This document shows positions 6,086-64,000 of a stretch of 64,000 bases of DNA, piece after piece. The DNA comes from a bacterium. Lineage in GTDB: Bacteria; Patescibacteriota; Minisyncoccia; Minisyncoccales; JAGLPU01. Numbering within the stretch: position 1 is the stretch's first letter; every line of letters starts with the position of its first letter. A model generated the notes under the pieces. It ran no database searches, was not told where the DNA came from, and saw nothing but the letters and a program-made list of their open reading frames with translations. The stretch covers positions 18,837 through 82,836 of the forward strand of contig DAOVZN010000001.1 of assembly GCA_030635055.1 (NCBI GenBank), in the 5' to 3' direction. The translations under genes and the position numbers were made by a program.

Positions 6086-6262
6086 CATTTTTTAGCTATC
6101 TTCTGTAAAATCAAGGCTTTCAAAAAAATCTTCAGCATAAAATAGCTGAGAAACAATATTTATTGTTCTTTTTTTAAAAAAACTTGCAATTTTCTTGTTT
6201 TTTTGATAACTTCTATCTATAAGCATTAATATATTAAAACAAACATTTTCAAAAGGACATTT

Positions 6263-41666: not shown

Positions 41667-42751
41667 TGCTTAAAGCAATTATCTTTTTAATAATCATTTT
41701 TTGGCCGCCAGCCGTAATGGCGGCTGATTTTTTAACCGTTGTTATTGATAAGATTACATGGATGGGAAACAAAGATTCCCATAGTAACGAATGGATTGAA
41801 CTTTATAATAATTCCTCAGTTCCTGTTGTTCTTGACAACTGGAAATTAATCGCGGAAGATGGAAGCCCGGAAATCAATTTAATCGGCGAAATTGCCGGGC
41901 AAGACTTCTTTCTCTTGGAGAGGTCAGATGATGAAACAGTTCCGGAGATTGAAGCTGACTTGATTTATACTAAAAGCTTGAACAATGATGGTGAAAGCTT
42001 AAAGCTTATCAACGAACAAGGAAAAGTAATAGACGAAGTAAATTGTTCCGCGGGCTGGTTTGCTGGAGACAATGAGACTAAACAGACCATGAAAAGAAAA
42101 AGTCCTAATGTTTCGGGGAACAATCCTGACAACTGGCAAACTGGCCAAAATACAACTAAGACAAAAGAAGCCAAGCCTCTTTTGTCTTATTCTGATGGAA
42201 TTGTGATTAATGAAGTTCTCCCCTCTCCGGAAGGCCCTGACGCTGATAACGAATGGATTGAATTTCTCAATCAAAATGATTTTGCTGTTGATTTGTCCGG
42301 CTGGAAAATCTCTGACACTGAAGGAAAAACTAAAATATATGTTTTTCCGGAGAAAACAAATATTAAGGCAAATTCTTTTCTTTTGCTTTCTCGAACAGAA
42401 AGCAAAGTCACTCTGAACAATAATGGTGATGGAATACAGCTTATTCAACCTGACGGAAACATTATAGATAATGTAAATTGGGGGCAAGCTGCTAAGAACC
42501 AGTCATACGGCCGAACCGAATCCGGGTGGAAGTGGATTTCTGATTTAACTCCTAATTCAGCTAATGCTGTTTTAAAAATAACAAAAACCAACCCTACTAA
42601 GAATATAGAGAAAAAAGAACCTAAAATTAGCTCAAAAGTCTTCACCTCTTCAGCGAAAGACTCCAGTTTCTCTTTGTCAGCCGCTCTAGTAGTGGCTCTT
42701 CTGTCCGGTGGAATAATAATCTTTCTTAAAAGAACAATTAATCAGGCTTGA
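41666..42751 (+). CDS. secreted/anchored protein with two lamin-tail-domain (LTD)-like modules
   Basis: Signal/TM at the N-terminus and a C-terminal TM (ALVVALLSGGIIIFL). Two repeats of the pattern NEWIELYN..., W.L.D..G and NN.GD.+.L. Confidence 0.65.
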   Translation: MLKAIIFLIIIFWPPAVMAADFLTVVIDKITWMGNKDSHSNEWIELYNNSSVPVVLDNWKLIAEDGSPEINLIGEIAGQDFFLLERSDDETVPEIEADLIYTKSLNNDGESLKLINEQGKVIDEVNCSAGWFAGDNETKQTMKRKSPNVSGNNPDNWQTGQNTTKTKEAKPLLSYSDGIVINEVLPSPEGPDADNEWIEFLNQNDFAVDLSGWKISDTEGKTKIYVFPEKTNIKANSFLLLSRTESKVTLNNNGDGIQLIQPDGNIIDNVNWGQAAKNQSYGRTESGWKWISDLTPNSANAVLKITKTNPTKNIEKKEPKISSKVFTSSAKDSSFSLSAALVVALLSGGIIIFLKRTINQA

Positions 42752-47458: not shown

Positions 47459-47655
47459 TGTTGTTACTATATCGTTATATTTTTATATTTTTACTCTTAT
47501 TTAGCTTAGAATAAAGTGTGGAAAATGTAGTGGATGAATCCCTTATTTTCTCCTTAATAAATTGTGACCTTTTTAATTGTTTTAAAAGCTATAAAATTTA
47601 TCCTCTATTCTTAAAGTATTTTTCCTCTTCTTTGTCCACAGTTTTTAAACACTCT
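47459..47655. other. dnaA-dnaN spacer with DnaA-box-like 9-mers and an AT-rich tract (oriC candidate)
   Basis: TTTTCCACA (reverse complement, 47517-47525) and TTGTCCACA (47632-47640) each have 1 mismatch to TTATCCACA. Weaker boxes lie at 47529-47537 and 47598-47606. An AT-rich run TTATATTTTTATATTTTTAC is near 47475-47500. Confidence 0.5.
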
Positions 47656-48996
47656 TTATAAATATAATTGCTCTTTTATTAATTTTATTTCTTCAACCAA
47701 TATTTCGTTTTCCTCTTTTTCTTTGGCAATTTTCGTACAAGCATGGATAGCGGTTGTATGGTCTTTTCCTCCGAACTTTCTTCCAATAGCAGGAAATGAA
47801 TTACTTAATTCGTTTCTTAATAAATACATGGCAATTTGTCTGGGTCTGACAATTTCTTTCTTGCGAGAAGCAGCTATTAAATCTTTTTCCTTCAGATCAT
47901 AAAATTCAGCCACTATTTGGATTATTTTTCTTGGATTAATCACTTTTACCGGCGATAAAATAGCTGTTTTAAGAAGGTTTTTTATAATTAATAGGTCAGC
48001 ATCTTTGTTATTGATTTTTTGATAAGCGGCCAATCTATTTAGGGCGCCTTCTAGCTCTCTGATGTTCTTTTTAATATTAGTGGCAATATATTCTAAGATT
48101 TCGTCAGAGATGTTAACCCTTTTTTCTTGCGATTTAACTTTTAAAATAGCCATCCTAGTTTCAAAGTCCGGGAAATCAACGTCAGCGATCATTCCCCCTT
48201 CAAAACGGGAACGCAGTCTGTCTTCTAAAGCGGAAATAGCCTTAGGAGGACGGTCAGCAGAAAGAATGATTTGTTTATTTTCTTCATATAGAGTATTAAA
48301 AATGTGAAAAAATTCTTCTTGAGTTTTTTCTTTTCCGGCTAAAAACTGGATATCGTCAATAATTAAGACATCGTATTTGCGATATTGTGTTTTGAAACTT
48401 TCAATACTGTGGTCTCTGATAGAATTAACCACTCCGGAAATAAATTTTTCTGAAGGAATATATTTTATTTTTTTTCGTGGAAAGTTTTTTTTCACCTTAT
48501 CTCCGATAGCTTGTATTAAATGTGTTTTGCCTAGTCCCACTCCCCCATAAATGAAAAGAGGATTATAAACGGCGCCGGGATTTTTGGAAACAGCCCATGC
48601 GGCAGCGTGAGGTAATTCGTTAAACGGACCCACTACAAAATTTTCAAAAGTATAACGGGGGTTAAGGTTAGTCTCTCTATTAATTTTAAGCTCTTGGAAT
48701 TCAAGCTGGTCAGTTTCCGGAAGACTTACTGTCGGCTGTTTTTTAAATTCAGTGTGATTCACCGTATATTGAGCTTCTTTGATTCCCTCATCAAGGTTAT
48801 GCAGGGTTTTAAGGATAATCTTATTATACTTGTTTTCCAGCCATTCCTTTGAAAAATTATTAGGGACAGAAACAATTACCAATCCTTCTTTTTTATTAAG
48901 AATTTTAGTGTTTTTAAACCAGGTAGCAAAACTAGCCTGTGAAATATTAAATTGGATTTGAGCAAGAACTGCTTGCCAAAGTTCTTCGTTATTCAT
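47656..48996 (-). CDS. dnaA: chromosomal replication initiator DnaA
   Basis: Walker A GGVGLGKTHL, Walker B VLIIDDIQF, and the C-terminal DNA-binding helix (GGKDHTTAIHA). Confidence 0.95.
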   Translation of the reverse strand: MNNEELWQAVLAQIQFNISQASFATWFKNTKILNKKEGLVIVSVPNNFSKEWLENKYNKIILKTLHNLDEGIKEAQYTVNHTEFKKQPTVSLPETDQLEFQELKINRETNLNPRYTFENFVVGPFNELPHAAAWAVSKNPGAVYNPLFIYGGVGLGKTHLIQAIGDKVKKNFPRKKIKYIPSEKFISGVVNSIRDHSIESFKTQYRKYDVLIIDDIQFLAGKEKTQEEFFHIFNTLYEENKQIILSADRPPKAISALEDRLRSRFEGGMIADVDFPDFETRMAILKVKSQEKRVNISDEILEYIATNIKKNIRELEGALNRLAAYQKINNKDADLLIIKNLLKTAILSPVKVINPRKIIQIVAEFYDLKEKDLIAASRKKEIVRPRQIAMYLLRNELSNSFPAIGRKFGGKDHTTAIHACTKIAKEKEENEILVEEIKLIKEQLYL

Positions 48997-49074
48997 AAAT
49001 TTAATACTAGAATTTCCTTGTTTAGTATAACATAAGTCTTAAACAAGAGTAAAATAAGCGTAAGTATAATTTTG

Positions 49075-49094
49075 TGTTGATAAGCTGTGGATAA
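49075..49094. promoter_or_regulatory. tandem DnaA boxes in the dnaA-rpmH divergent spacer
   Basis: TGTGGATAA at 49086-49094 is the exact complement of TTATCCACA. TGTTGATAA at 49075-49083 has 1 mismatch and the same orientation. Confidence 0.65.
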
Positions 49095-51279: not shown

Positions 51280-51699
51280 ATGTCTGAGGTGATTGAAATG
51301 GAAGGAAAGAAACATAGAATATTCCCACCGATATTTGTTGATAAAGAGAAGAGAATTGGCTTCGGGATTCTTGCTCTATTTTGTCTTGTGATAGTGGGAG
51401 CTTACGCTTTTGGAGGCGGTGGCGATGTTATCGCAGATAGCGTAGGTTGTTATGTGTGCGGCACATGGGTCCCCGTGAGAGAAGTAGGAGGAACAGTTAG
51501 CATAGAATTTAGTAGTGATGGCAGTTTCAACTACTTTGAAAACATGGAAGATGACTGGGCCAGGTTTTCCGCAGCCGGCACATGGGAACAGACAGGAAAC
51601 ACAATAACAGTTGAATATAGAGGACTGAAAGAAACATGTGTTTTAAAAGGAAGAGTCTTGCACGACGAAGATGGCATAGCATGGAAAAAGCTCCGTTAA
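51280..51699 (+). CDS. small membrane-anchored hypothetical protein
   Basis: 139 aa with one TM (IGFGILALFCLVIVGAYAF) and a Trp/Gly-rich C-terminal domain. Confidence 0.55.
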   Translation: MSEVIEMEGKKHRIFPPIFVDKEKRIGFGILALFCLVIVGAYAFGGGGDVIADSVGCYVCGTWVPVREVGGTVSIEFSSDGSFNYFENMEDDWARFSAAGTWEQTGNTITVEYRGLKETCVLKGRVLHDEDGIAWKKLR

Positions 51700-51703
51700 A
51701 AAA

Positions 51704-51740
51704 ATATTTCTGTCTTAATAGGCAGAAATTTTTTTATTTT
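51704..51740. terminator. bidirectional terminator hairpin between convergent genes
   Basis: ATTTCTGTC-TTAATA-GGCAGAAAT flanked by A-run and T-run. Confidence 0.5.
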
Positions 51741-53184
51741 AATATTTTACTTTAACCACTATTAGAGAAGAGCCTATGTCGTTCATGGTGTAGGTAAAGT
51801 TTTTTAGTTCTCCTTTGCGAAGAACCATACATTTACCCGAATAGTTGCTATCTTTATACAGGAAGGCTATATAGTTGCCGTCTGCGCTGATTTCTGCTGC
51901 AGAAATACCACTATCGGTCAAAAGACCGTCCCCTATCGGGTCATCAGGATCAGGAGCCAGCACTCCGTGTTCCTCCCATGTATGAAGCTGTAAATTAGCG
52001 TCTCCTTTGGCCACTGCTTTGCCAGCTAAGCTAAAAGTGTCGCCAAATTTAGTATCAGCAAATCCATAGTAGGTAAATGTGGCAAGATTAGGGACTATTG
52101 TCCCGCCGATACAGCCAAGCGGTGTCCATATGCCTCCAACACAGTAATTATGTTTTTCACAGTTATGCTCGCGGCATAACTTTATTCTCCCATCGTAATA
52201 AGGCTGAATGTTCAAATCAAGAAAAGTCATAGAAGAGGCGCCATAACCTACAGCGTTGTCGGTTAGATCCGGATCATCGTCAAGTATAATGTCGCATTCT
52301 CCTTCATAATGAAAATTCTTATGTAGAGCGACACGGAGATAAGAATTTAAGTCGTCTTTGAATTTAATAGATTTTACTTTATCGTTAAGATTTTCAGTAT
52401 AAAGATTATAGAGATCGGGTTGTTTCGGAAAAAATTTGCACTTGCCGTAATTTGTTTCTTCACAAAGATAAAGACCAGGTTCTCTTTTGTTAACTATTTT
52501 TATTGATTTGGGGGCAAAGCCGCAGAGAGCGGTTATGTCATCGTGATGTCTAGGGGGATTTCCGGATGCTGGGTCAATAGGATCAAGGAATTTTCTCTCT
52601 ATCCCTCCATAGTCTATCTCAGTATAAAAATAAACATCTATATCTTCCACGGAAACAGAATCATTGATTTTGACAGAAAGAGTATTGAAATCACTTAAGT
52701 TGTGCATGGATTGATCAAATCCATAGATACGATGGTCCCCCCCTAAATTTATTTCAGGGTAAAGTTCTATTGCTCCTGACATTTCTATCTTATCTAATCT
52801 TAAAATTGTTAGTTCCGGGTTAATGGTATTTAAAATCAAGAACGAAGAAAGTAGTATCGCCAAACCTATGACCGCTGAGGTTATTTGATCTCTGGCGTCG
52901 CTCATTTTTGCCGGATTACCGCCGGAAGTCATATGTTTGTATCCTCCTAAAATCAAAGCGCTAAAAGCTACTAAGCCGGCAATCATTAAAGCGAAACTGA
53001 AAATATACTCTATATAATCCGGCAGAAGGGTTTTGGTCGAAACAGGCACAGGCACTCCGCCAATTATAGGATAATCAACTTCCAAGTCTGTTTCGCTGAA
53101 ACAAAAACTACTAGGAGCAAGAGTTAAAAAAAAGAATAAAACAAGAATAAAGCCAATGATTTTTTTATGTTTAGTTATTTTCAT
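51739..53184 (-). CDS. pilin-like (VirB2/TrbC-topology) N-terminal module fused to a large extracellular domain with beta-gamma-crystallin-like repeats
   Basis: 481 aa. Signal peptide, DLEVDYP motif, TM hairpin (..FALMIAGLVAFSALILGG...GNPAKMSDARDQITSAVIGLAILLSSFLILNTINPEL), then repeated Y/F-x4-Y/F-x-G ... S modules such as IAFLYKDSNYSGKCMVLRKGELKNFTYTMNDIGSSLIVVKV. Confidence 0.6.
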   Translation of the reverse strand: MKITKHKKIIGFILVLFFFLTLAPSSFCFSETDLEVDYPIIGGVPVPVSTKTLLPDYIEYIFSFALMIAGLVAFSALILGGYKHMTSGGNPAKMSDARDQITSAVIGLAILLSSFLILNTINPELTILRLDKIEMSGAIELYPEINLGGDHRIYGFDQSMHNLSDFNTLSVKINDSVSVEDIDVYFYTEIDYGGIERKFLDPIDPASGNPPRHHDDITALCGFAPKSIKIVNKREPGLYLCEETNYGKCKFFPKQPDLYNLYTENLNDKVKSIKFKDDLNSYLRVALHKNFHYEGECDIILDDDPDLTDNAVGYGASSMTFLDLNIQPYYDGRIKLCREHNCEKHNYCVGGIWTPLGCIGGTIVPNLATFTYYGFADTKFGDTFSLAGKAVAKGDANLQLHTWEEHGVLAPDPDDPIGDGLLTDSGISAAEISADGNYIAFLYKDSNYSGKCMVLRKGELKNFTYTMNDIGSSLIVVKVKY

Positions 53185-53190
53185 ATATTT

Positions 53191-54336
53191 TTAATAAATT
53201 AGATCGCAGCAGAAATAATTAGGGGCCTTAGCCGGATCGGCCGCTTCTTCGCTGCACCTGGGTTTATCAATTTCTAAAAAGTACTTAATAATAGAACAGT
53301 TTAATGTGTCTTTTATAGTGAATATCTCACCTTCAACAACACAGTATCCATCTCCGGCGACAAGTTGCTTATAACATGTTAAAGGTGTAAAACACTGTCT
53401 TAATTCTTTTCTAGCCCCATCTAATTTTGCTGAAATTTGCGTAGGCGTAACCGATGTAGTCAGCGTCATAACATTTAAAAGATCACCGGTAATGTTTAAA
53501 TTATGGATTTGAATATTTGTATAAGAATTATTAATGTTAGTATAATTTGTAAGCGCGTTGCTATAGTAGCCAGTTATTGCGGCAATAGAGGCATCAATGT
53601 CTGTCATGGGGCAGGCGTTATCAGTGCCGTCCCAGCGAGCGCAGCTGGCCTTAGAACCGTCAAGGAGAGTAAAAATATCGCAATTGCAAGGATTCTCACA
53701 GTTAGGGCATTTATAGTATGGTTCGTCGCAGATCCAATCACAGGTCCATGGGAACACTGGTAAACAATCAAGGTGTCCAGAGAAACAGTCATCTGGGCAA
53801 TCATTTGTTGTGTCTATATCATTATTGTCACACATTTTACAACCATGGCGCTTTGGTGTCCCATCCGCATTAAAAACATCAGATTCCAAAAGATCAAATT
53901 CCCATATTTTAGTACAGTTGCATTTTCCGGGCAAACAAGCTCCTGAGCAATCCTCGCAATTATTCGGGCTTCCGTCTGTAAAACCGAGTATTTTATTAGC
54001 TTCTTTTCTCGCTGAATTAGTCGTTTTCGCGATATTCTCTATTAAGAGTATAGCATTATCAACTGCGGAAAACCCTTCGTCTTTAGCTAAAACGGCATTA
54101 TCATAAAGATCTTTGTATTTTATAAGCAGGTCATCGCCGTATTCTTTCGTTTCGTCAACCGCTTCTCCTATGCGAATTTCTGTGTGGCAATCCCATTGTT
54201 CCGTTTTTTCTTGTCCCTGGACAATCTCTTTTTCATTAAATGACAAGAAACAGGAGAGTAAAAGAGAAACCGTCAAAACTAAGAAAGTTTTTATGCCTAT
54301 TCTGTAGATTTTTTTATTTAATAAATAATATTTCAT
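53191..54336 (-). CDS. secreted cysteine-rich protein (27 Cys), unknown family
   Basis: 381 aa. N-terminal signal/anchor, a helical segment, then dense CxxC/CxC clusters (NNCEDCSGACLPGKCNC, YYKCPNCENPCNCD) and an Asn/Thr-rich stretch. Confidence 0.6.
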   Translation of the reverse strand: MKYYLLNKKIYRIGIKTFLVLTVSLLLSCFLSFNEKEIVQGQEKTEQWDCHTEIRIGEAVDETKEYGDDLLIKYKDLYDNAVLAKDEGFSAVDNAILLIENIAKTTNSARKEANKILGFTDGSPNNCEDCSGACLPGKCNCTKIWEFDLLESDVFNADGTPKRHGCKMCDNNDIDTTNDCPDDCFSGHLDCLPVFPWTCDWICDEPYYKCPNCENPCNCDIFTLLDGSKASCARWDGTDNACPMTDIDASIAAITGYYSNALTNYTNINNSYTNIQIHNLNITGDLLNVMTLTTSVTPTQISAKLDGARKELRQCFTPLTCYKQLVAGDGYCVVEGEIFTIKDTLNCSIIKYFLEIDKPRCSEEAADPAKAPNYFCCDLIY

Positions 54337-54342
54337 AGACTA

Positions 54343-55689
54343 TTATTCCACATAATAAAAAGTTGCCGGATCGCCTCCCGGTTCAATTTCTCCATCTCTA
54401 TATTCCTTTAATTCTATGTTTGTTTTTTCAGTTTCTAAAAAAGAATAATAACTCATTATAGAATTATAGGGATTTAATTTTATTATCATTTCAATTTCTT
54501 CCAGGCTGACCAAATCTTTTGTCAGGTTTTCTATTATTTCTTCCGGACTGCCGTAGTCTTGTTCAATTTCTTTTAATCCTGTGCGGTCAGCTTTTGAAAT
54601 CAGATCTTTGGCTTCCGTATCAAGTATAAACAAGGCGTTAATTTCTACTGAATTAGTGGTTTCAAATGCTTCAACAGTATTAGTATCGCTCTTGCTTAAA
54701 AAAGCGTCAATCACGCCGGCAAATAATTCAACCCTTTTTAATTCTTCTTCCACCACCGGTTTTTTGGCAGAGATATTGGCAATAATTTCAGGAATGCCAT
54801 CTATAATATTAAAAGGATCTCTTAGCTCATCCATTCTGGCTCTATCCGGGCAGGTGTCAGTAATAGGGCCGGTATTGCAGGCGCTGCAAGCAGTCATAGC
54901 GTGGCAGCCGTCATTGGTACAGTTATCGCACTTGTTGCCTCCAAATACCCAAAATATAGTGCAATCAGAACTGCAGTTGCTGCATTTACAATCAGCGGCA
55001 AGAGTTGCCAGTTCTATGGACTGGGCTTTTAAGAAGAGGCCAAGATTTTTTAATTTCAAAGACTCATCGTGCAAGACTTCCATTAATTTTTCTAATTTTT
55101 TGTTCGCTCTTTCAAGAGCGTCTCCGGTTTTTTCTAGTCTTTGCAGCCTGGCAGGGTTTAAAATTCCTTCGTAAGCTGAATAGGAGATGCTTAAAACAGA
55201 ATTTTTATTATTAATTAGCGTCCCTAAAGGAAATTCATAAACAGTAATCTTTGGTTCTATATTATAATCCTCGGGGAGAGGCAAAGCTTCAGGATCGTGT
55301 GTTAACGGGGCAAAGGAGAAAAATACCAAGTTAGGATTAATAGTAGATAAGAGGATATAAGAAGAAAGTAAAATTAGCAGTCCAACAATGCCGCAAATGA
55401 TTCGGTCCCTTGCGTCTCTATGAGAGGCTGGGTTTCCCCGGGAAGCTGTATATTGTGCTCCGGCTCTAACTATTACTCCTAAAGCAATAAGCCCGCAAGC
55501 AATGATGGCAAAATTAAAAATATATTTAATGTAGCTATGCAAGAAGGTTCTGGTTGATGTCGGGCTTTCCCCGCTGATTACAGGATAATCAACTTCTAAA
55601 TCTGTTTGGGAAAAAACAAAACCGCCTATAGACATCAGCAAGAGAGAAAGAACAAGAGCTATAATAAATGTTTTGGAATGTTTAATCAT
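54343..55689 (-). CDS. pilin-like paralog with helical stalk and Cys-knot extension
   Basis: 448 aa. The first ~125 aa align by eye with the 481-aa protein (DLEVDYP..., GNPASHRDARDRIICGIVGLLILLSSYILLSTINPNL). A 10-Cys cluster follows: CKCSNCSSDCTIFWVFGGNKCDNCTNDGCHAMTACSACNTGPITDTC. Confidence 0.6.
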   Translation of the reverse strand: MIKHSKTFIIALVLSLLLMSIGGFVFSQTDLEVDYPVISGESPTSTRTFLHSYIKYIFNFAIIACGLIALGVIVRAGAQYTASRGNPASHRDARDRIICGIVGLLILLSSYILLSTINPNLVFFSFAPLTHDPEALPLPEDYNIEPKITVYEFPLGTLINNKNSVLSISYSAYEGILNPARLQRLEKTGDALERANKKLEKLMEVLHDESLKLKNLGLFLKAQSIELATLAADCKCSNCSSDCTIFWVFGGNKCDNCTNDGCHAMTACSACNTGPITDTCPDRARMDELRDPFNIIDGIPEIIANISAKKPVVEEELKRVELFAGVIDAFLSKSDTNTVEAFETTNSVEINALFILDTEAKDLISKADRTGLKEIEQDYGSPEEIIENLTKDLVSLEEIEMIIKLNPYNSIMSYYSFLETEKTNIELKEYRDGEIEPGGDPATFYYVE

Positions 55690-56245
55690 TTTTTAACTCG
55701 CTTACTACAGTTAAGCTCCAGAAAGGAAAAACTTGGATAATAGGGACTAAGGTGCCGACAAAAGACCTAAATAATTTTAGAGCTATCTTACCGCCACTTC
55801 TCGCCGCTGTTTTTACTGCCGTTTTTGTAACTACTCTTTTTGTCGTTGTTTTTTTTATTCTTGTCGCTGCTGCTCTTTCCGCCTCCTGTGCCATATCTTT
55901 TTCCGTGGCCTTGGCCACTCCTTTTTCTGATTCTTTGGCGTCAGCCTTAGTGGCAGCTCTGTCTTTTTTAGTTAAATTTGTATCCGGTAGGGTTATCTCC
56001 GGTTCTTCTATCGTATCTATTTCTTCTTCCTCCTCTTCCGTTGATGCTTTTTTACCGCTTGCGCGAGAATACATCCATGAGCCGACTATTATTAAACAGA
56101 AAAAGTCTAAGATTAAACAAGAGATAATAGCTGCCAGTGCGCCTATTATCGTAGGAAGCAAGAGTGTTGTGACAATGCTTACTAAGTCGCAAGCTCCGCC
56201 CACTATTAACATTGCTACTCCTTCCGGTCTGGTAAAACTAGACAT
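55682..56245 (-). CDS. membrane protein with two N-terminal TM helices, charged low-complexity linker and C-terminal hydrophobic helix
   Basis: 187 aa. 8-nt overlap with the downstream pilin-like gene and a 2-nt gap after the VirB4 gene. The linker is EEEEEEIDTIEEPE followed by a Lys/Thr/Ala-rich stretch. Confidence 0.55.
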   Translation of the reverse strand: MSSFTRPEGVAMLIVGGACDLVSIVTTLLLPTIIGALAAIISCLILDFFCLIIVGSWMYSRASGKKASTEEEEEEIDTIEEPEITLPDTNLTKKDRAATKADAKESEKGVAKATEKDMAQEAERAAATRIKKTTTKRVVTKTAVKTAARSGGKIALKLFRSFVGTLVPIIQVFPFWSLTVVSELKND

Positions 56246-56247
56246 AT

Positions 56248-58029
56248 TTATTCTGCTTGTTTAGCTCTTTTTATTTTCAGAATTTCTTCGGGAGAGGTGG
56301 TGATTATTTGGTCCTCGGCATAAGAGGCGACAACTTTAACTAAAACATGCTTTTGTCCGGCGAAAAATAATCCCTCCCCTATCGCTGCCTCTAAGAGCAT
56401 GTATTTTTCTTCGTCAGTCAAATTAAAAGTCTTTTGGACGATGTCTATGCTTGCCGGGCTTTGTTTCATCAGAAATTGCAAAGAGGAATTAGTGATAATG
56501 GGACGGCCATAGCTTGATTTCATAAAGTCAGCCACATCCTGGGTAATAGTGGTAAGTCCCAACCAGTATTTCCGTCCCCTTTTCGCAATGCCGAAAAGGA
56601 AAGAAGCTCCATCTTCCGTTTTCATCAGCCACCATGCTTCGTCGATAACCAGAATTCTTTTCTTTAGCTCTGAGCGAACCTTGTTCCAGATGTATCTCAT
56701 GATGATAAACATTGCCATGGGCCTGAGTTCGTCTTCCATGTCCCTTATGCCAAAAGCAACCAAAGAAGAATCCATAGAGATGTTGGTGGGCTGGTTAAAG
56801 AAATTTGAAAAAGTTCCTTCAGTGAATTTAGCCATCCGTTTTAATAAAGAGTCAGTCCCATCCATTCCTTCCAGCACTGACTGCAAGTCTTCCATTAAAG
56901 GGATATTATCCGGCCAGGCGTCTGGATCGCTATCTATAGTAATATCATGGGAGGCATAAGTTTCAGTCAAAGCCTGGTCCATAATACTGTCTTCAGCCGC
57001 TGACAGACCGCCAAGCATAATTCTTAATAACCCCACTAAGTTGATAATATTGGAGCGGAGGATATCTTCCGGCTTTTCTCCTTCCCTGGGGCAAGGCAGG
57101 TCAAAAGGATTGATATGATTATCTGATGATAAAGAAATATTAAAGAAAGATCCTCCTACTGCGTCAGCCAAAAACTGATATTCGTTTTCCGGGTCAAGAA
57201 TAATGCAATCCACTCCCAACATTAAAGAGCGCAACAGTTCCAGCTTTACCATGTATGATTTACCGGAACCGGATTTGGCAAAGATTACACAGTTGGCATT
57301 TTCTAAACTAAATCTGTCAAACAAAATTAAAGAATTGTTATGTTGGTTTACCCCGTAAAGGATTCCTTCATTCGAGCTTAAATCAAAGGAAATAAAAGGG
57401 AAAACGCTGGATAAAGGGCCGGTGTTCATCGGTGTATAGACCTGAAGTTCATCCAAACCATAAGGCGCAGAAGAAGTAAATCCCTGTTTTTGCTGGTAAA
57501 GAGCGGGTTTGATATAGATTAAGCGTGATTCCAGAATTGAACGAAGCTCGGTTTCAGTGCTTATTAATTCTTTTTCGGTATCAGCGTAAATAGTCAGATA
57601 TATGCCAAGATTAAACATTCTTTCCTGAGCGGTTTGTAACTGATCTCTTAAAGTTTCTAAGTCTTGATGCGCAGTTTCCAAAACCGGATCGCGAACCAAT
57701 CCTTTCTCTTCTTTCTCCATAATCTCGGCTTGAACTTCGGTTACTCTTTTTCTTAAATCCTTTAAGGTTCTTTCGGTTTCGATAGGATAAACAAAAAAGG
57801 AAATATCCATTGGCGTATCCAGATTGATTATTGGAGAAAACCAGCCTGTTGTCAGATATCTGGGATAAGAAAAAATGAAAAAGCTTTTAGTGAGCCTTTC
57901 CCCTACTTTTGAATAGCTTTGAGCAATTTCAATAAAAGAAGGAGCGATAATATCAACAGCTTTAAGAGTGTCTATCTCAAAAATTCTTTCAGGGACTCCT
58001 TCCTTCTTTTTTTTAAAAAATGGGAACAT
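56248..58029 (-). CDS. virB4: VirB4-family type IV secretion ATPase (C-terminal 593-aa part)
   Basis: Walker A FAKSGSGKSY and Walker B ILVIDEAWWLM. The N-terminal segment SYSKVGERLTKSFFIFSYPRYLTTGWFSPI resembles the middle region of Gram-positive VirB4 proteins (Tn916 Orf16 / PrgJ type). Confidence 0.85.
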   Translation of the reverse strand: MFPFFKKKKEGVPERIFEIDTLKAVDIIAPSFIEIAQSYSKVGERLTKSFFIFSYPRYLTTGWFSPIINLDTPMDISFFVYPIETERTLKDLRKRVTEVQAEIMEKEEKGLVRDPVLETAHQDLETLRDQLQTAQERMFNLGIYLTIYADTEKELISTETELRSILESRLIYIKPALYQQKQGFTSSAPYGLDELQVYTPMNTGPLSSVFPFISFDLSSNEGILYGVNQHNNSLILFDRFSLENANCVIFAKSGSGKSYMVKLELLRSLMLGVDCIILDPENEYQFLADAVGGSFFNISLSSDNHINPFDLPCPREGEKPEDILRSNIINLVGLLRIMLGGLSAAEDSIMDQALTETYASHDITIDSDPDAWPDNIPLMEDLQSVLEGMDGTDSLLKRMAKFTEGTFSNFFNQPTNISMDSSLVAFGIRDMEDELRPMAMFIIMRYIWNKVRSELKKRILVIDEAWWLMKTEDGASFLFGIAKRGRKYWLGLTTITQDVADFMKSSYGRPIITNSSLQFLMKQSPASIDIVQKTFNLTDEEKYMLLEAAIGEGLFFAGQKHVLVKVVASYAEDQIITTSPEEILKIKRAKQAE

Positions 58030-58044
58030 ATTTAAAATAAATTA

Positions 58045-58701
58045 TTATGTTGTTAGTTCTGGCGGGATTTCAGGGTAATAACCAATTTCCGCTTGCTTGG
58101 GGTGGTGCAGAGCCCAAAACAGTTCAATTAATTCGCCGGTAGTTAAAGGAACGGCTTTCAGCCCGCATCTTCTTAATCCTAAAACAACGAACTCCATTCT
58201 TTGCCAAAGCTGAGTTTTGCATCTTTGGAATATCTCTTCGGTCAAATTGGGCGCTTTCTGCTTTTTTTTGGATTTTATGGAACTAGTAGCTAGGACAGAA
58301 GTGCTGAAAGGAACCACTAAAAAGAAAGTCTTTGACATAATGGTGCCTGTTTTCACTAATCCTTGAATAAACTCTATATAACCGGTAGTTTGCATTTTAA
58401 GAAGTTCGTTTTGCTGCTTTGCTTCTATCTCTTTTAATTTTTCAATATAGCCGGTAATGTTAAGTTTTCTTGATTGAACCAGGATTTGGCAGCCGAAATC
58501 CATAGAATTAAGAAAATTCTGGAATTGATAAATGGTGGCAGTTTGTTCTTCTTCTGACTTCAAAGCGAAATTTAAAGAAGAAACCATTAAAACTCCCCTA
58601 AAGGATTTGTTTTTTAAAATGATAACTCCTTCCCTTATTTGTTTTATTTTTAAAAAGTCTTGAGTTGCTGATTTAGCCATGTTGTGTTCTGTTAACTTCA
58701 A
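58045..58701 (-). CDS. VirB4 N-terminal-domain-like protein (separate ORF, same frame as the ATPase)
   Basis: 218 aa. IREGVIILKNKSFRGVLMVSSLNFALKSEEEQTATIYQFQNFLNSMDFGCQILVQSRK resembles the extreme N-terminus of Gram-positive VirB4 proteins. It ends in TAA TAA, 15 nt before the ATPase ATG and in the same frame. Confidence 0.5.
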   Translation of the reverse strand: MKLTEHNMAKSATQDFLKIKQIREGVIILKNKSFRGVLMVSSLNFALKSEEEQTATIYQFQNFLNSMDFGCQILVQSRKLNITGYIEKLKEIEAKQQNELLKMQTTGYIEFIQGLVKTGTIMSKTFFLVVPFSTSVLATSSIKSKKKQKAPNLTEEIFQRCKTQLWQRMEFVVLGLRRCGLKAVPLTTGELIELFWALHHPKQAEIGYYPEIPPELTT

Positions 58702-59101
58702 TTTGAGTGAATAATTTTTTTAATTTGCTTCTGCCGGCAATTTCCGGAAGAATGTATTGTTTTTTCTTTATATCTTCTTCGCTCTTTTTAGGCATTTTTT
58801 TGATTACAAATTTAGGCGGCATAACTTTTCTTTTCCAAAGAAATATTTTAGAAGAAAGAGCAAAAATTAAAAAGTTTCTGAAAACTATCTCTAAGCTTTG
58901 TCCGTTGATTTTTAAAAAAGTGAGGGAACCCACTGCGCCGACAAGAGTGACGGAAGCCATTAAGAAAAAGAAAGGAGGCAGAGAAACTTTAAAAAAATAG
59001 CAAGCAGCTGCCGTCAGAACAATAATGATAAACTGGCGGAAAGTAAGCGGACCTACTATTTTTGGTTTTCGGTCAATAAATTGTGGAACCTGAAATCGCA
59101 T
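58673..59101 (-). CDS. PrgI/VirB3-like small membrane protein
   Basis: 142 aa. MRFQVPQFIDRKPKIVGPLTFRQFIIIV followed by two TM helices, positioned immediately upstream of VirB4 as in Gram-positive T4SS loci. Confidence 0.55.
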   Translation of the reverse strand: MRFQVPQFIDRKPKIVGPLTFRQFIIIVLTAAACYFFKVSLPPFFFLMASVTLVGAVGSLTFLKINGQSLEIVFRNFLIFALSSKIFLWKRKVMPPKFVIKKMPKKSEEDIKKKQYILPEIAGRSKLKKLFTQIEVNRTQHG

Positions 59102-59113
59102 ATGAATTTAAGC

Positions 59114-59485
59114 TTATTCAATTGATTCTCTATAAGTATCTTTTATTGGAGGAGAAGAAGGCGTTTCTGTTTTGTATAAAGAGGCCAAACTTTTTTCCAC
59201 GGGACTGAAAACAGTTTGTTTAATTTTCAAAGCAATTTTTTCAGCGGTTTCCGCTTCTATCCCTGTTTTCTCTATAGTTTCCTGAAATTTATCCGGAGGC
59301 AAAAGACCTGTTAAGACGTCTTCAATGACTTGAGCGATTTTGGAAATTCTATCGGTTTTAATTCCATTATCAGTGCAAATGTTATAGACAGCATCAGCTG
59401 TTTTTTCTGAGAAAATCACTTCTTTTAGTTCTTTAGAGAGGTCTTTGTGATCTTTTTCTTTTGTCAGAGAATCAGGTGTTTCCAT
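59114..59485 (-). CDS. small acidic hypothetical protein (first gene of the cluster operon)
   Basis: 123 aa, helical by composition, with no TM and no recognised family. Confidence 0.5.
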   Translation of the reverse strand: METPDSLTKEKDHKDLSKELKEVIFSEKTADAVYNICTDNGIKTDRISKIAQVIEDVLTGLLPPDKFQETIEKTGIEAETAEKIALKIKQTVFSPVEKSLASLYKTETPSSPPIKDTYRESIE

Positions 59486-59645
59486 AATAAATTTATAAAT
59501 TCTTCTTACACTTATTATTTTACTATATATTTAATCAACAGGCAATGTTAGCAAATTTGATTTTTTAAAGAAGTTGACAGATTTAGAGAATTGTGTTATT
59601 GATATAATCAAACCAAAATGCACATTAAAATATAAATAAATACAG

Positions 59646-60791
59646 GTGATAAGAATGATAGGATTTCTAATAGGATTAGTAACAACTATAGCAACGGCGG
59701 TAGCAATATTGGTATTAGCGGCAGTGGCAGGCTTTCTTATAGTCTATTTCTATTTGGCTCCGAGAAACTATTTTTTTACTTTTGTAAAAGAAGGTTCAGC
59801 TAAAGCCATTATGAGAGCCGGTAAATTTGAAAAGATTCTTATCCAATGGGAAGGTCGTGGGTTAACTGAAAACGGCGATGTAAGTTGGTTCGAAGAAGAC
59901 AAGAGTTTTCTCAGGCGCTTGTTCGGTGGCCTTTGGTATTATGGATTTTGGCCGCTGCACGATGTCTATATCTATAAATTTGACTGGACTGGGATAAAAG
60001 AAAATGGAGAACCAAATCCTCACCAGGGGAAAACGCTTGATTACATCTTAGTAAAAGAAGATGTTTATCGGGTAGAGATTAAAGATGCTGAGGACAAAGA
60101 TTTGCTTCATTTATTAGTGGAAGTAGTTATGCCTATAAGAATTGTTAACCCGCGGAAGGCGCTATTTGATGTGGAGAATTGGTTGGAGGCAGTGATTGCG
60201 CTAGTGGCGCCTGCAGTACGAGATGCAATTACCCAAGACACTTATAAAAACCACATTAGAAACCCAGAGTCATTAGGGGAAAAAATATTTAGTCTTTTAA
60301 AAAAGCAGATAAAAAGATTTGAAAAAGACTATGGTGTAAAAATTCTTGATATAGGTATAAAGAATATAGATCCTCCTGAAGAATATCGGGAGGCGAGCAT
60401 TAAAGAATATCTTGCCGAACAAGAGAAAAAAAGAATTAAAATACTGGCAGAAGCGCAAAAACAAAAGTTGATAACTGAAGCCGAAGGAGAAAGACGAAGA
60501 ATAGAAAAGGTATACGGGCAGACTGACAAAATGGGTTATATCGGTCAATTAAAAGCGATATTAGAATCAATGGAAAAAACAGGAATGGCTGGTGTCTACG
60601 CTGTGCCAGGGCTTAAGGAATTTATAGGAGAAGCCGTTGGTAAACCCACAGAAAAGATAACTCCTGAGGATATTGCAATTTTTAGAAAAGTGGCTGAAGA
60701 AGAAATTGCAAAATCAAAAAAACCTAAGTCTGCAAAAAAGAAAAAACCTGCCAAAAAACGCAAGGAGGTTACTAGAAAAAAGAAAAATTGA
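59646..60791 (+). CDS. SPFH/band 7 domain protein with Lys-rich C-terminal tail
   Basis: 381 aa. N-terminal TM, an SPFH-like core, a coiled coil (EQEKKRIKILAEAQKQKLITEAEGERRRIE), and the tail KSKKPKSAKKKKPAKKRKEVTRKKKN. Confidence 0.75.
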   Translation: MIRMIGFLIGLVTTIATAVAILVLAAVAGFLIVYFYLAPRNYFFTFVKEGSAKAIMRAGKFEKILIQWEGRGLTENGDVSWFEEDKSFLRRLFGGLWYYGFWPLHDVYIYKFDWTGIKENGEPNPHQGKTLDYILVKEDVYRVEIKDAEDKDLLHLLVEVVMPIRIVNPRKALFDVENWLEAVIALVAPAVRDAITQDTYKNHIRNPESLGEKIFSLLKKQIKRFEKDYGVKILDIGIKNIDPPEEYREASIKEYLAEQEKKRIKILAEAQKQKLITEAEGERRRIEKVYGQTDKMGYIGQLKAILESMEKTGMAGVYAVPGLKEFIGEAVGKPTEKITPEDIAIFRKVAEEEIAKSKKPKSAKKKKPAKKRKEVTRKKKN

Positions 60792-60794
60792 GAG

Positions 60795-60826
60795 AAAAAA
60801 AGAGGCTGAAATTCAGCCTCTTTTTC
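60795..60826. terminator. bidirectional terminator between convergent genes
   Basis: AAAAAA-AGAGGCTGA-AAT-TCAGCCTCT-TTTT. Confidence 0.6.
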
Positions 60827-63026
60827 ATGAGTCAAACCCGGCTCCTCCTTGTCCTCTAGGAGGTTTTCCCTTTTTTTTAGAAGGCTTTATCTCTCTTGGT
60901 CCGGTCACTCCTCGTGGTTCTTCAGGTGGCTGTAGCTTTTTCTTTATCCAGCCCGTTAGTTTTTTTCGTTTCTTTGTTTTCTTTATATCTTCTTCGCTTT
61001 CTTTTTCCATTACATCCATTTGGCCTAATGTCTCTTTCCATCCTTCGTTCGTTAGATCCCTATCTTCTGTAACTTTTTCAAATTTTCCAAGTATTTTCTC
61101 CTGCCACTCTTTTTGTTCCTGTTCGCTTTTTTGAGGAACATCAATGTTTTTTATTTCTTTCAAAGTTTCCAAGAAGTTTTCTTTGCCTTGAGGATTATTG
61201 CGGCTCATAGATTTGTAAAATCCTTTGCCTAGATACTGCATGAACGCCGTGACAAAAGCCTTATCCTTAAAGACATCAGCGCCCATGTCTTTTATGTCTT
61301 CAACTCTTACTTTGTCTCTTGCCACTGCCTCTACTGCTTCGTCTTCTGTCATTTTTCTCTTTGTCATTTTACCAGTCTTAGTATCTCTCTTTTCTATATA
61401 TTCATAAGCTCCTATGTTTCCAGCCGCCAATCTTGCCAATCGAGGATTATTTCTTAAAATAGGAGTTAATTCACCTCCTTTATTAGCATCTACTAATTTT
61501 GGAGTTATTAATTGCTTGAATCTTTTATCTTTTATAACCTGATCATCTGTACTGAGCTTATATTGTTTTTTAGCTGCATCAAACAAGTCCTGCACATCGC
61601 CGTTTTTGGCAAGTTGTTTAAGGGCGGCAGTGCCGCGTATTTCTGACAAATCTTCGGTCATCAGTCCATGAGCCAAAGAGCCGGAATTTCTGTAAGAAAG
61701 CTCTTTTTGGGCGGTTTCAATCGACCCTTTGTGCTCGGCATATTTTCTAAGCCCTTCCGGGACAGCCCACCTGGCTATATTATGTTTTTCCCATTGTCTT
61801 GTTACGCTACCTGCTATTTCTCGAGTTTTTAACTTTCTTTCAATTGGAGCGGCAATTCTCTCTCTGACCACTCTTGTGCCTCCTTTTCTCATCCATCCTA
61901 AGGCTTTATTTCCATATTTTTTGCCGCCGCTTATAACCCCTCCGGCGCCCATTGGCGTGGTTTTAATTGCAGTAAGAAAACCGATGAATAACAATACCAT
62001 ACAAACAATATAAGGCATTATTGTGTCTAGATAACCACTGCTGCCGGCTAAGATTTTGCCGATGGAAATAACATTAGTGTCCACCATATATCCTTTTAGC
62101 TGGTTGGACAAGAACAGAAAAAAAGCTAAAGTTATACCGATAATATTCCATTGTAAAAATTGGTTCCACCATTCTTCCCAATGTAATATTCCCGGGAATA
62201 GTTTTTTTGTTAAACCGCTTTCTTTAAAAATATAGGTAAAGAATGCTATAGGCGACAGAATAACCAGAATCCATAACATAACATATCGAGTGATGAATAA
62301 AGCAACAAAGAGGAAATAAATAAAAGCAGTCATCAAACTTATGAAAATATGAATGATGGTTTTAAACATAAAACTAAAAGAAAGAATTTCAGATATAGCG
62401 CTGAAGCCCATTAAGCTTGATGTTATTTCTTTATATTGTTTGGTAAATTCATCTAAAACAGATCCCCAACCGGTGACTCCGTCTAGAAAATAGTTCATTG
62501 CAATATTGGAAGCGTCAATAATAACTCCACATATCACCGGAGTGAAATTAATTAACAACAGGATAATAAATAAACGAGGCAAAGTTTTCTGCCACTGGTA
62601 TTCTTGGATTCTCAAAGCGGTTCCCAGCCCAATAAAAGCTAAAATAATAATAAAGCCCATATTGACCAAGTTTCTAACAATGTTCCATCCTTGAATCACA
62701 AATTCGTTGGAAGTGAAAGAAACATTAATAAAATAGGGACTGGTCACTATCGTTAAAAGCCCCGCCGCCGCCGCCAAAAGAACATTGGCAAGAAGTAAAA
62801 GGAATTGCAAAACTACATCTTTGAGAAGAAGAAAGGATATGCTAATACCAAAAAGTGCGTGAGCGGAAAAAATCGGCAATGTTATTCCTAAAACTGAAAA
62901 CAATAAAACAGCCATCCAACGCTGTTTTTTATTTTTTTGAAAATATGAAACTTTATCTATAAATTTTCTGAGAAATTGTTTCATAGAAGCAAGAGGTTTG
63001 TAATCATCTATATTATTATAACACAA
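60825..63026 (-). CDS. large polytopic membrane protein, VirB6/TcpH(Orf15)-like candidate, with about 330-aa cytoplasmic C-terminal region
   Basis: 733 aa with about 8-9 TM helices in the first 400 aa, then a charged soluble region and a basic Pro/Gly tail. The call rests on architecture and genomic context only. The start may be the internal MKQFLRKF at 62984. Confidence 0.45.
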   Translation of the reverse strand: MCYNNIDDYKPLASMKQFLRKFIDKVSYFQKNKKQRWMAVLLFSVLGITLPIFSAHALFGISISFLLLKDVVLQFLLLLANVLLAAAAGLLTIVTSPYFINVSFTSNEFVIQGWNIVRNLVNMGFIIILAFIGLGTALRIQEYQWQKTLPRLFIILLLINFTPVICGVIIDASNIAMNYFLDGVTGWGSVLDEFTKQYKEITSSLMGFSAISEILSFSFMFKTIIHIFISLMTAFIYFLFVALFITRYVMLWILVILSPIAFFTYIFKESGLTKKLFPGILHWEEWWNQFLQWNIIGITLAFFLFLSNQLKGYMVDTNVISIGKILAGSSGYLDTIMPYIVCMVLLFIGFLTAIKTTPMGAGGVISGGKKYGNKALGWMRKGGTRVVRERIAAPIERKLKTREIAGSVTRQWEKHNIARWAVPEGLRKYAEHKGSIETAQKELSYRNSGSLAHGLMTEDLSEIRGTAALKQLAKNGDVQDLFDAAKKQYKLSTDDQVIKDKRFKQLITPKLVDANKGGELTPILRNNPRLARLAAGNIGAYEYIEKRDTKTGKMTKRKMTEDEAVEAVARDKVRVEDIKDMGADVFKDKAFVTAFMQYLGKGFYKSMSRNNPQGKENFLETLKEIKNIDVPQKSEQEQKEWQEKILGKFEKVTEDRDLTNEGWKETLGQMDVMEKESEEDIKKTKKRKKLTGWIKKKLQPPEEPRGVTGPREIKPSKKKGKPPRGQGGAGFDS

Positions 63027-63032
63027 CTTTTT

Positions 63033-63848
63033 TTATAATAACACATTTTTAAAATTTACTAAATTTTTCCAGTCGTCGAGGCTTAAAGTTTCCGCTCTTT
63101 GGTTCGGCTTAATATTATTTTCCGATAGCCATGATGCGGTTTTTTCTTTTGGCAGATTTAATCCCCCGCTTAGATTGTTGACCAGTTGTTTTCTGGGGTG
63201 GGAAAATCCAGCCTTAACAATTTTAAAGAATTCTTTGGGGAGTTTGGGCGTGAAGCAAGGAATTATTTCAATGATGGCGGAGTTTACTTTAGGCATCGGA
63301 TAGAATGACCCACGGGAGACATAACTCATAATTTTGGGCTGGCTATAGAACTGTACGGAAACAGCCAATAAATTCATTCGCGGAGGTCTAGAGCAAATTC
63401 TTTGCGCCACTTCTTTTTGCATCATCAAAACCATTGATTCGGGCCGATTTTCCGCTTCTAAAAACTTTCTTATAACAGGAGAGGTAAGGTAAAAAGGCAG
63501 ATTGGCAACCACTTTATAGTTGGAAACCAAAGATTGTAGATTTAATTCAAGGATGTCCTCCCTTACAACTTTAACATTTTTTGTTTCTTCCAGGGTTTCT
63601 TTTAAAATTTCTATCATCTCTCTGCTTTTTTCTACGGCAATAACCTGTCTTGCTTTTTTTGCCAGCTCCTGGGTGATAACTCCAATTCCCGGTCCGACCT
63701 CTAAAACAATGTCTTTTTGCGTTGTTTTTGCTGTTATTTTTTCCACCACTCCTCTGTTAACTAAAAAATTCTGCCCGAAATATTTTATGGGAGCAGTTTC
63801 ATATTTTTTAAGCAGTCCAACAATGTCTTTTTTTGAACATAAGTCCAT
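63033..63848 (-). CDS. rsmA: 16S rRNA (adenine1518/1519-N6)-dimethyltransferase RsmA/KsgA
   Basis: KYFGQNFLVN, SAM motif VLEVGPGIGVIT, NLPFY. Confidence 0.9.
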   Translation of the reverse strand: MDLCSKKDIVGLLKKYETAPIKYFGQNFLVNRGVVEKITAKTTQKDIVLEVGPGIGVITQELAKKARQVIAVEKSREMIEILKETLEETKNVKVVREDILELNLQSLVSNYKVVANLPFYLTSPVIRKFLEAENRPESMVLMMQKEVAQRICSRPPRMNLLAVSVQFYSQPKIMSYVSRGSFYPMPKVNSAIIEIIPCFTPKLPKEFFKIVKAGFSHPRKQLVNNLSGGLNLPKEKTASWLSENNIKPNQRAETLSLDDWKNLVNFKNVLL

Positions 63849-64000
63849 TGCCTTACTTTACCATAAATTTGCCTGGTTGTGGAAAAGACGCTTGACTTTT
63901 ATCTTAGGAACGATAGACTTAGAACAAGTTAATTTATATGAGTACTATCTTAAAACTAAGTACAAATTCATTGAGGAGAGTTGCGAAATCTCCTTTTTTT

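Follow-up and report, generated by a model that had tools for sequence, protein, structure and literature searches.

The locus analyzed here raises the question of what a gene cluster centered on a VirB4-type ATPase, and resembling a type IV secretion system (T4SS), is doing beside dnaA on the core chromosome of a member of the Patescibacteria, with no relaxase, coupling ATPase or integrase alongside it. The cluster lies between positions 51739 and 63026 of a 64,000-nucleotide (nt) stretch of contig DAOVZN010000001.1, referred to below as the window. We think it quite probable that the locus encodes a T4SS-like system, derived from the MPF_FATA conjugation machinery of monoderm bacteria, that assembles a host-facing fiber or surface array and does not conjugate. 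It is a further member of a T4SS already described in Patescibacteria and forms no new class. The cluster comprises the following genes, with coordinates in the window (aa, amino acids; TM, transmembrane).

60825-63026, minus strand: putative extended VirB6/TrbL-like polytopic membrane protein (transitive homology)
59646-60791, plus strand: SPFH/Band_7 membrane-scaffold protein, inside the cluster (Pfam Band_7, E 2.2e-14)
59114-59485, minus strand: small soluble protein, 123 aa, first gene of the eight-gene run (conserved synteny)
58673-59101, minus strand: PrgI/VirB3-like protein, 142 aa, two TM segments (Pfam PrgI)
58045-58701, minus strand: TrsD, similar to the VirB4 N-terminal domain, a separate gene (NCBIfam matches below cut-off)
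56248-58029, minus strand: VirB4 ATPase core, 593 aa, MPF_FATA/CD1110 type (profile and PDB matches)
55682-56245, minus strand: small membrane protein, 187 aa (conserved synteny)
54343-55689, minus strand: VirB2-like pilin domain (residues 1 to about 121) and a partly Cys-rich extracellular extension of 325 aa, 448 aa in all (homology)
53191-54336, minus strand: secreted or anchored protein with 27 Cys, 381 aa, between the two pilin genes (composition)
51739-53184, minus strand: VirB2-like pilin domain (residues 1 to about 125) with a tandem extension of predicted beta/gamma-crystallin fold, 481 aa (T4SS_pilin profile and fold)

The eight minus-strand open reading frames (ORFs), running from 59485 down to 51739, and the polytopic ORF upstream of them were all found where the first-pass annotation of the window had placed them. 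Their reported spacing, between an overlap of 29 nt and a gap of 15 nt, was reproduced in the ORF list. Following the minus strand, 12 nt separate the 123-aa gene from prgI, which overlaps trsD by 29 nt if the TTG start of trsD is used and by 8 nt from the ATG start of the public gene calls. A gap of 15 nt lies between trsD and virB4, one of 2 nt between virB4 and the 187-aa gene, and the latter overlaps the 448-aa pilin gene by 8 nt; the 381-aa gene is set off from each of its pilin neighbors by 6 nt. The earlier description of the cluster was correct for these genes and overlooked the SPFH/Band_7 gene, which lies on the opposite strand and separates the VirB6-like gene from the eight-gene run.

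The 593-aa protein contains both of the motifs attributed to it, Walker A (KSGSGKS) and Walker B (VIDEAWW). As expected of a genuine VirB4, it passes the NCBIfam model conju_CD1110 (354.6 bits vs. a cut-off of 325, profile positions 183-732 of 752), and it matches Pfam P-loop_TraG with an E value of 1.2e-22. Among PDB entries the VirB4 C-terminal domain (4ag5, E 7.8e-44) and TrwK (E 3.6e-6) were recovered. The protein has more than 8000 homologues, those listed being about 595 aa long with about 75% identity. Among the best 120 matches (74-92% identity) the taxon names, where given, are Patescibacteria, Parcubacteria or Paceibacterota, and one match, labelled “Candidatus Parcubacteria bacterium”, is exact (100%).

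The best 80 genome loci by VirB4, all from metagenome-assembled genomes of Patescibacteria, were compared by means of our own ORF calling and iterative hidden Markov model (HMM) searches. These loci (L006-L085) represent distinct species of Nealsonbacteria, Staskawiczbacteria, Minisyncoccales and Paceibacterota, and three metagenome contigs were compared as well: L001 (the source contig), L004 and L086. VirB4 identity ranges from 64 to 92% across the loci, and the gene appears to be strongly conserved under purifying selection. With relatives in Nealsonbacteria, Staskawiczbacteria and Minisyncoccales, VirB4 also bears out the earlier assignment of the DNA to a reduced-genome member of the Patescibacteria.

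VirB4 had been described as encoded in two parts, and the 218-aa protein upstream does match the N-terminal portion that is absent from the 593-aa protein. All of its NCBIfam matches are below cut-off: VirB4_plasma (E 5e-9, positions 96-233), CD1110 (E 2e-5, positions 2-144) and TrsD (E 4e-4). It has a precomputed label, PF26593 (TraC-like), and no sequence match in PDB. The length of 218 aa applies to the TTG start; public gene calls use an ATG at 58680, giving 211 aa. A frameshifted virB4 or pseudogene was considered and rejected, given the two separate genes in relatives and the length of about 595 aa among the listed homologues. TrsD is encoded by its own gene adjoining virB4 in 79 of the 80 loci, and the split is thus a conserved two-gene architecture.

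The protein proposed to be PrgI/VirB3-like with two TM segments passes the Pfam PrgI model (36.1 bits vs. a cut-off of 27) and has hydrophobic segments at approximately residues 15-63. Its gene is located directly upstream of trsD in 74 of 80 loci. The VirB6-like ORF encodes 733 aa from a TTG start, or 719 aa from the ATG at 62984 used in public annotation, and consists of an N-terminal multi-helix membrane domain (residues 30-350, approximately) and a large helical C-terminal domain. Many of its 173 homologues have the precomputed labels PF04610 or PF19590. The Pfam TrbL model is matched by 8 of 50 family members (best E 1e-6), and three homologues, P0129, P0136 and P0170, attain its gathering score. 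P0136 is 41% identical to the window protein over residues 29-376 (E 1e-80). The PF19590 label was neither returned by our Pfam scan nor found in the literature, and was not used. The gene is syntenic in 44 of 80 loci, and its product would fit the “extended VirB6” type (PMC12857230).

The setting of the cluster on the chromosome is defined by two boundary features.

63033-63848, minus strand: rsmA/ksgA, the conserved upstream boundary gene (Pfam label RrnaAD)
47656-49094, minus strand: dnaA with DnaA boxes, the probable replication origin (ORF list and box matches)

Gene order in the compared loci is near-invariant: a divergent LysM-M23 gene, rsmA, the VirB6-like gene, the 123-aa gene, the SPFH gene on the opposite strand, prgI, trsD, virB4, the 187-aa gene, one to four pilin genes, jag, yidC, yidD, rnpA, dnaA and dnaN. 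In most of the 80 loci the cluster leads into the stretch from jag to dnaN. At the other end rsmA was found in 32 loci, and the VirB6-like gene is immediately next to it in 16 of the 30 that have both. Position and gene order are the same in about 78 species of Paceibacteria (Parcubacteria), which makes the locus a vertically inherited part of the core chromosome rather than an island. Its GC content (0.34-0.40) is the same as that of its surroundings. Profiles and synteny thus agree with the first-pass annotation, which had seen a VirB4-centered, T4SS-like cluster in the core chromosome beside dnaA.

The distance to dnaA and the origin, put at about 3 kb, is close to the roughly 2.7 kb observed between dnaA and the cluster end. 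Matches to the DnaA box at 47517, 47632, 49075 and 49086, the last of them perfect, flank dnaA. The minimum of the cumulative GC skew and a switch in gene orientation are found near 38-40 kb, some 8-10 kb from dnaA. Since the skew minimum and the DnaA boxes (47517-49094) disagree, the exact position of the origin is ambiguous.

The VirB4 of this locus is of the conjugative MPF_FATA/CD1110 type, and the cluster might accordingly be read as the degenerate or domesticated relic of an integrative and conjugative element (ICE), or as a functional conjugation system with its relaxase and coupling protein encoded elsewhere in the genome. Only part of the genome is visible here, many Patescibacteria encode VirD4 homologues at a distance from virB4, and relaxases were recorded in 103 genomes (PMC12102498). 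The window itself offers little to such an element. Forty of its other proteins were scanned against Pfam and were assigned housekeeping, signaling and envelope functions only, with no relaxase, VirD4/TcpA coupling ATPase or integrase among them, as first claimed; the remaining ORFs (small, translation, replication and housekeeping) were judged by eye. An ordinary ICE just outside the window had been named as the finding that would overturn the first interpretation, and no ICE features or other mobility genes were seen in the 10-kb flank on the rsmA side. No bounding repeats occur at the locus, where only short AT-rich chance repeats were detected. Relaxases are, moreover, rare in the phylum, being almost always absent where the T4SS is present, and the coupling protein is non-essential in Southlakia (PMC12102498). 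With position and gene order fixed in about 78 species, a strongly conserved VirB4, uniform composition, and neither repeats nor mobility genes in the 64 kb and flank, we reject the ICE reading as highly improbable. The missing relaxase, coupling protein and integrase, together with the fixed position beside the origin in those species, indicate that the system does not conjugate.

VirB11 had also been reported missing from the window, and the sole ATPase of the T2SSE superfamily (39190-40485, plus strand) was considered for this role and rejected on profile scores. It is of the GspE/PilB type, scoring 385 bits with T2SSE, 431 with GspE and 419 with PilB, vs. 57 with VirB11, for which the cut-off is 250. 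Its gene overlaps by 4 nt that of a 364-aa protein with a weak DHH match (38099-39193, plus strand); ruvB is next, and no other pilus genes adjoin it.

The absence of a peptidoglycan hydrolase holds inside the window and fails directly beyond rsmA. There, just past window position 64000, a gene with LysM and Peptidase_M23 domains (L001 3037-4092, minus strand) is divergent from rsmA, and it adjoins rsmA in 21 of the 25 loci with enough sequence. The hydrolase could be a VirB1 analogue and could equally serve in cell division. VirB1 homologues with Peptidase_M23 or LysM domains have been tied to virB4 specifically in Paceibacteria (PMC12102498). The source contig continues from rsmA and the hydrolase gene through a DksA-like gene and one for a 687-aa protein to PNPase (L001 1-437), about 8 kb from virB4. 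PNPase and VirB4 have been discussed together as ancestral traits of RNA-feeding Minisyncoccota (bioRxiv 10.64898/2026.06.21.733656); the proximity of the two genes here may be coincidental.

How does this locus compare with what is known? A monophyletic, MPF_FATA-derived VirB4 clade is present in 2,407 of 3,035 Patescibacteria genomes (Quinonero-Coronel et al. 2025, Microb Genom, PMC12102498). The associated T4SS includes TrsD, PrgI/VirB3, VirB6 and arrays of divergent VirB2-like pilins, and in Paceibacteria and Microgenomatia its neighbors are dnaA, dnaN, rnpA, ksgA and rpmH (PMC12102498). The present locus shares the MPF_FATA VirB4 with an adjacent TrsD, the PrgI/VirB3, VirB6-like and pilin components, the lack of a relaxase in window and flank, the location beside dnaA/dnaN/rnpA/ksgA/rpmH and the M23/LysM hydrolase. 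There is no difference in kind. The novelty that the first-pass annotation implied was therefore misplaced, the system having been described between 2023 and 2025 (PMC12102498, PMC10633639), although its interpretation of the locus is otherwise supported. Because the system is already known, novelty is low, and it is the giant decorated pilins and the conserved accessory genes that remain of interest. The main text of PMC12102498, searched by term, is silent on pilin extensions, on crystallin domains and on an SPFH gene. Not found in that main text were large pilins (450-2,200 aa) extended by crystallin, Cys-rich, M23 or Ig-like domains, the SPFH gene, the 123- and 187-aa families, and the 27-Cys protein.

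The MPF_FATA systems of Gram-positive bacteria (pCF10 Prg/Pcf, pGO1 Trs and C. difficile CTn2) resemble the locus in their CD1110-type VirB4, PrgI-type VirB3, a TrsD as in pGO1, a polytopic protein of the VirB6/PrgH class, and the lack of outer-membrane core parts. In contrast to them, the locus has no relaxase, coupling protein, PrgB-type adhesin or recognizable VirB8-like protein, is fixed on the chromosome rather than carried on a mobile element, and encodes VirB2-type pilins, which the Gram-positive systems do not have.

These pilins are the most distinctive part of the cluster. The 481-aa protein passes the T4SS_pilin model (32.2 bits vs. a cut-off of 26.6). The 448-aa protein scores 20 bits, under that cut-off, and is recovered by an HMM of the family N-domain with an E value of 3e-49. 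The two had been called paralogous, and this applies to their N-terminal 123 residues (48% identity, E 2e-26); their extensions are unrelated. Hydrophobic segments are found at residues 9-27, 61-79 and 100-118 of the 481-aa protein and at residues 8-26, 56-74 and 97-115 of the 448-aa protein. As in the VirB2/TrbC pilins of Gram-negative systems (PF18895, PF04956), a signal peptide is followed by two hydrophobic helices (residues 50-86 and 91-120 in the AF2 model of the 481-aa protein) joined by a short polar loop, in an operon with VirB3 and VirB4. Canonical pilins, however, are made as precursors of about 100-120 aa and are about 70-120 aa when mature, whereas those encoded here, at 448 and 481 aa, have C-terminal ectodomains of 325-355 aa, which reach thousands of residues in relatives. 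A single non-pilin gene parts the two pilin genes, as described for the arrays of other Patescibacteria (PMC12102498).

The extension of the 481-aa protein falls below the threshold for membership of the crystallin sequence family (Pfam Crystall, E 0.0011, 19.5 bits vs. a cut-off of 25). Several homologues are labelled PF00030/PF03995, with weak Crystall or Inhibitor_I36 signals. An AF2 model built with 26 homologues has a pLDDT of 70.5 overall and of about 85 for residues 140-370. A Foldseek search of PDB with this model returned gamma- and beta-crystallins (E 4.5e-7, probability 1.0), with 69 matches at E<=1e-3. The extension is accordingly predicted to contain Greek-key beta/gamma-crystallin domains.

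The survival of the first interpretation had also been made to depend on whether the pilin-like and Cys-rich proteins are conserved along with VirB4. This proved true of the pilins, which accompany VirB4 in 62-63 of the 80 loci, and untrue of the Cys-rich protein, which is confined to close relatives. Between one and four pilin genes are present per locus, and they differ in number, size and even position, sometimes lying upstream of the VirB6-like gene. Among the 130 pilin ORFs found in relatives the median length is 494 aa; 115 exceed 300 aa and 19 exceed 1000 aa, the largest being those of L042 (2113 aa) and L074 (2,239 aa). Extensions are seldom recognizable between genomes, and that of the 448-aa protein was recognized in just two of the 80 loci (L006 and L020). 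A few contain M23, Ig-like or crystallin domains; among 74 related pilins, Peptidase_M23 occurs in two and the Ig-like He_PIG in one.

In 87 of the 130 pilin ORFs the pilin domain closes with a conserved motif, T-I-N-P-x-L, near residue 117. The codons for T-I-N-P-E/N-L are located at 52810-52827 (481-aa protein) and 55327-55344 (448-aa protein) on the minus strand. The few pilins of canonical size in relatives (100-136 aa) end 5-12 residues past it. C-terminal processing of TrbC/VirB2 is established in the RP4 and Ti systems. The motif is possibly a processing site, or it might simply mark the end of the second TM segment (TM2).

These observations bear on a different reading, in which the VirB2-like domain would serve as an export or anchoring handle and the C-terminal domains, cut at T-I-N-P-x-L and released or else singly anchored, would make up a hypervariable display or secretion system. 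The frequency of the motif, the end of canonical-size pilins just beyond it, the predominance of ORFs above 300 aa, and extensions that are mutually unrelated and include enzyme domains all agree with it. On the other hand, the motif may be just the TM2 end, and the Cys-rich 381-aa protein is located inside the array without a pilin handle. We regard this reading as unlikely. Slightly less doubtful, and still tentative, is the proposal that the VirB2-type domain of Paceibacteria might be a conserved handle by which the T4SS displays, or frees by a cut at T-I-N-P-x-L, hypervariable host-targeting ectodomains (beta/gamma-crystallin, Cys-rich, Ig-like and even M23 peptidase), with the 187-aa, 123-aa and SPFH proteins as lineage-specific assembly factors. 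The apparatus would then be a surface-display or secretion system with cargo-bearing pilins rather than a classical pilus.

The 27 Cys residues reported for the 381-aa protein were confirmed, and it has one N-terminal hydrophobic segment. It belongs to no Pfam or NCBIfam family and is a near-orphan, with 5 clusters, itself included, among 1.84 billion representatives. No homologue was detected in the 80 genome loci; one, P0300, is likewise encoded between two pilin genes in the close relative L086. The protein shows a weak resemblance in Cys motifs to the extension of the 448-aa pilin (E 0.05), from which it might, very tentatively, be taken for a former pilin extension now without the pilin domain.

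If the host-facing fiber or array is the correct reading, the parts might work together as follows. From what is established for other T4SSs, VirB3 would dock a VirB4 hexamer, with TrsD, onto the VirB6 membrane platform. VirB4 would then pull the pilin domains, with their two TM segments, out of the membrane and build a surface fiber or surface array. The pilin C-terminus, coming after TM2, would face outward, and the ectodomains would for this reason be displayed toward the host. The large, fast-evolving C-terminal domains (beta/gamma-crystallin and Cys-rich) could in this way be presented as contact or adhesion modules. The preference of the first-pass annotation for host contact over conjugation is also the published view, and host contact is a proposed function.

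Several points weigh against such a fiber. Subunits of 448-481 aa, and of up to 2,239 aa in relatives, far exceed any polymerizing VirB2 pilin known to us, and the family HMM found two pilin-domain proteins and no small pilin in the window. Given this size and the missing small subunit, the “pilins” may instead be membrane-anchored surface proteins, or may be cleaved. No VirB8 analogue was identified at the locus. The membership of the 733-aa protein in the VirB6 family is suggested by transitive homology. The window protein itself matches no Pfam family, TrbL included, and a profile search of PDB sequences returned coiled-coil noise only. A full-length AF2 model (719 aa) has a pLDDT of 78, with the C-terminal domain confidently predicted to be helical. 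A Foldseek search of PDB with it gave nothing significant, the best T4SS match being R388 8rtd_L (TMt 0.44, E 3.2). As neither fold nor PDB profile searches lend support, the VirB6 assignment rests on the transitive Pfam matches. The search for a coupling protein and relaxase covered 64 kb and 10 kb of a contig of about 139 kb, so that either might be encoded farther away; in many Patescibacteria genomes VirD4 homologues are far from virB4 (PMC12102498). The functional tests of the T4SS come from Saccharimonadia, a different class (PMC10633639).

In those tests, transposon sequencing showed the T4SS and the pilin array to be essential for epibiotic growth of the Saccharibacterium Southlakia epibionticum (Wang et al. 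2023, Cell, PMC10633639). This essentiality is independent of comEC, and a 2025 nomenclature review speculated that the pilus is a conduit for uptake from the host (PMC12857230). The apparatus could be mainly a translocation conduit rather than an adhesion fiber, exporting effector proteins or importing host macromolecules (nucleic acids, nutrients) in the manner of archaeal Ced, with pilins that form or tip the channel. No obvious adhesion-only role accompanies the essentiality in Southlakia (PMC10633639, PMC12857230). In a cultivated Minisyncoccota parasite, host RNA is gained, tubular structures that are possibly T4SS pili are seen at the host interface, and VirB4 has been linked with macromolecule transfer (bioRxiv 10.64898/2026.06.21.733656). 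The weak similarity of VirB4 to CedB and CedD counts in favor of a conduit, and the Peptidase_M23 domains fused to pilin domains in some relatives would help to breach the host wall.

The Ced system (CedA/CedB) is similar in having a VirB4/HerA-type ATPase, in not being donor-driven conjugation and in belonging to organisms without an outer membrane. Its gene set differs, however. The VirB4 of this locus is only weakly similar to CedB (52.4 bits vs. a cut-off of 700) and CedD (17.4 vs. 600), and no CedA-like parts turned up at the locus, in analyses that included no search aimed at CedA. Further points against a conduit are that no nearby coupling ATPase would select substrates, that no candidate effectors are evident at the locus, and that essentiality independent of comEC argues against DNA uptake for transformation. 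A conduit is to our minds a real possibility, if on balance an improbable one, and the host-facing fiber or array is preferred.

The 123-aa, 187-aa, SPFH and LysM-M23 proteins are placed among the accessory parts by conserved synteny only. The SPFH gene occupies the same slot and strand in L001, L004 and L086; of the 54 related loci whose sequence extends far enough upstream, at least 23 have it there too. An extended -10-like sequence, TGATATAAT, is found near this gene at 59600-59608, and a second, canonical SPFH paralogue is encoded at 19677-20435. The 123-aa protein had been described as small and acidic; it is mildly so, with 24 Asp and Glu residues vs. 18 Lys and Arg, and has no TM segment. 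In 60 of 80 loci a homologue precedes prgI, and the family alignment shows a conserved C-terminal motif, D-x-Y-R-E-P-I-E. A Pfam scan of family members and a PDB profile search gave only scattered single-member noise.

Near its N-terminus the 187-aa protein has a hydrophobic hairpin and near its C-terminus a hydrophobic segment with an E-x-x-P...P-x-W motif, and the charged linker between the two is variable. The TM candidates (residues 36-54 and 163-181) and the linker match its earlier description as a membrane protein with a charged linker. Its gene adjoins pilin genes in 47 of 80 loci, mostly directly downstream of virB4. D20, G55, E165, P168, P174 and W176 are conserved in the family alignment, whose members gave no Pfam match.

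Some variation surrounds this core. A plus-strand ORF of 139 aa (51280-51699) has no homologues in the loci compared and is not part of the system. Its slot, between the last pilin gene and jag, is occupied in L086 (10536-11797) by a 183-aa gene and a small pair that includes a ParE-toxin gene. In L042, L074 and L055 the ori-side genes are inverted and jag directly precedes prgI-trsD-virB4, without an upstream VirB6-like or 123-aa gene; loci with this inverted layout bear single giant pilins (2113 and 2239 aa). Elsewhere in the window, a plus-strand gene between ruvB and yebC (41666-42751) specifies a secreted protein containing two lamin-tail domains (LTD, E 1e-29), and the LTD-YebC-RuvC neighborhood is also found in L004. 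A tmRNA gene (5697-6088, plus strand; Rfam, 134 bits) with the tag peptide ANLFTKAKNTVVNAFGSGTLAPACA directly follows smpB.

This class of system is near-universal in a huge and mostly uncultured bacterial radiation, and it is essential in the one genetically tractable member. Adhesion, effector export and uptake from the host are candidate functions for it. The locus provides a clean reference layout for Paceibacteria, a conserved core of 10 genes between rsmA and jag. Features that it brings out for systematic study are VirB2-like proteins whose very large ectodomains evolve fast, a conserved motif where pilin domain and ectodomain meet, and three conserved accessory families. Such features are handles on how an epibiont with a minimal genome recognizes and exploits its host.

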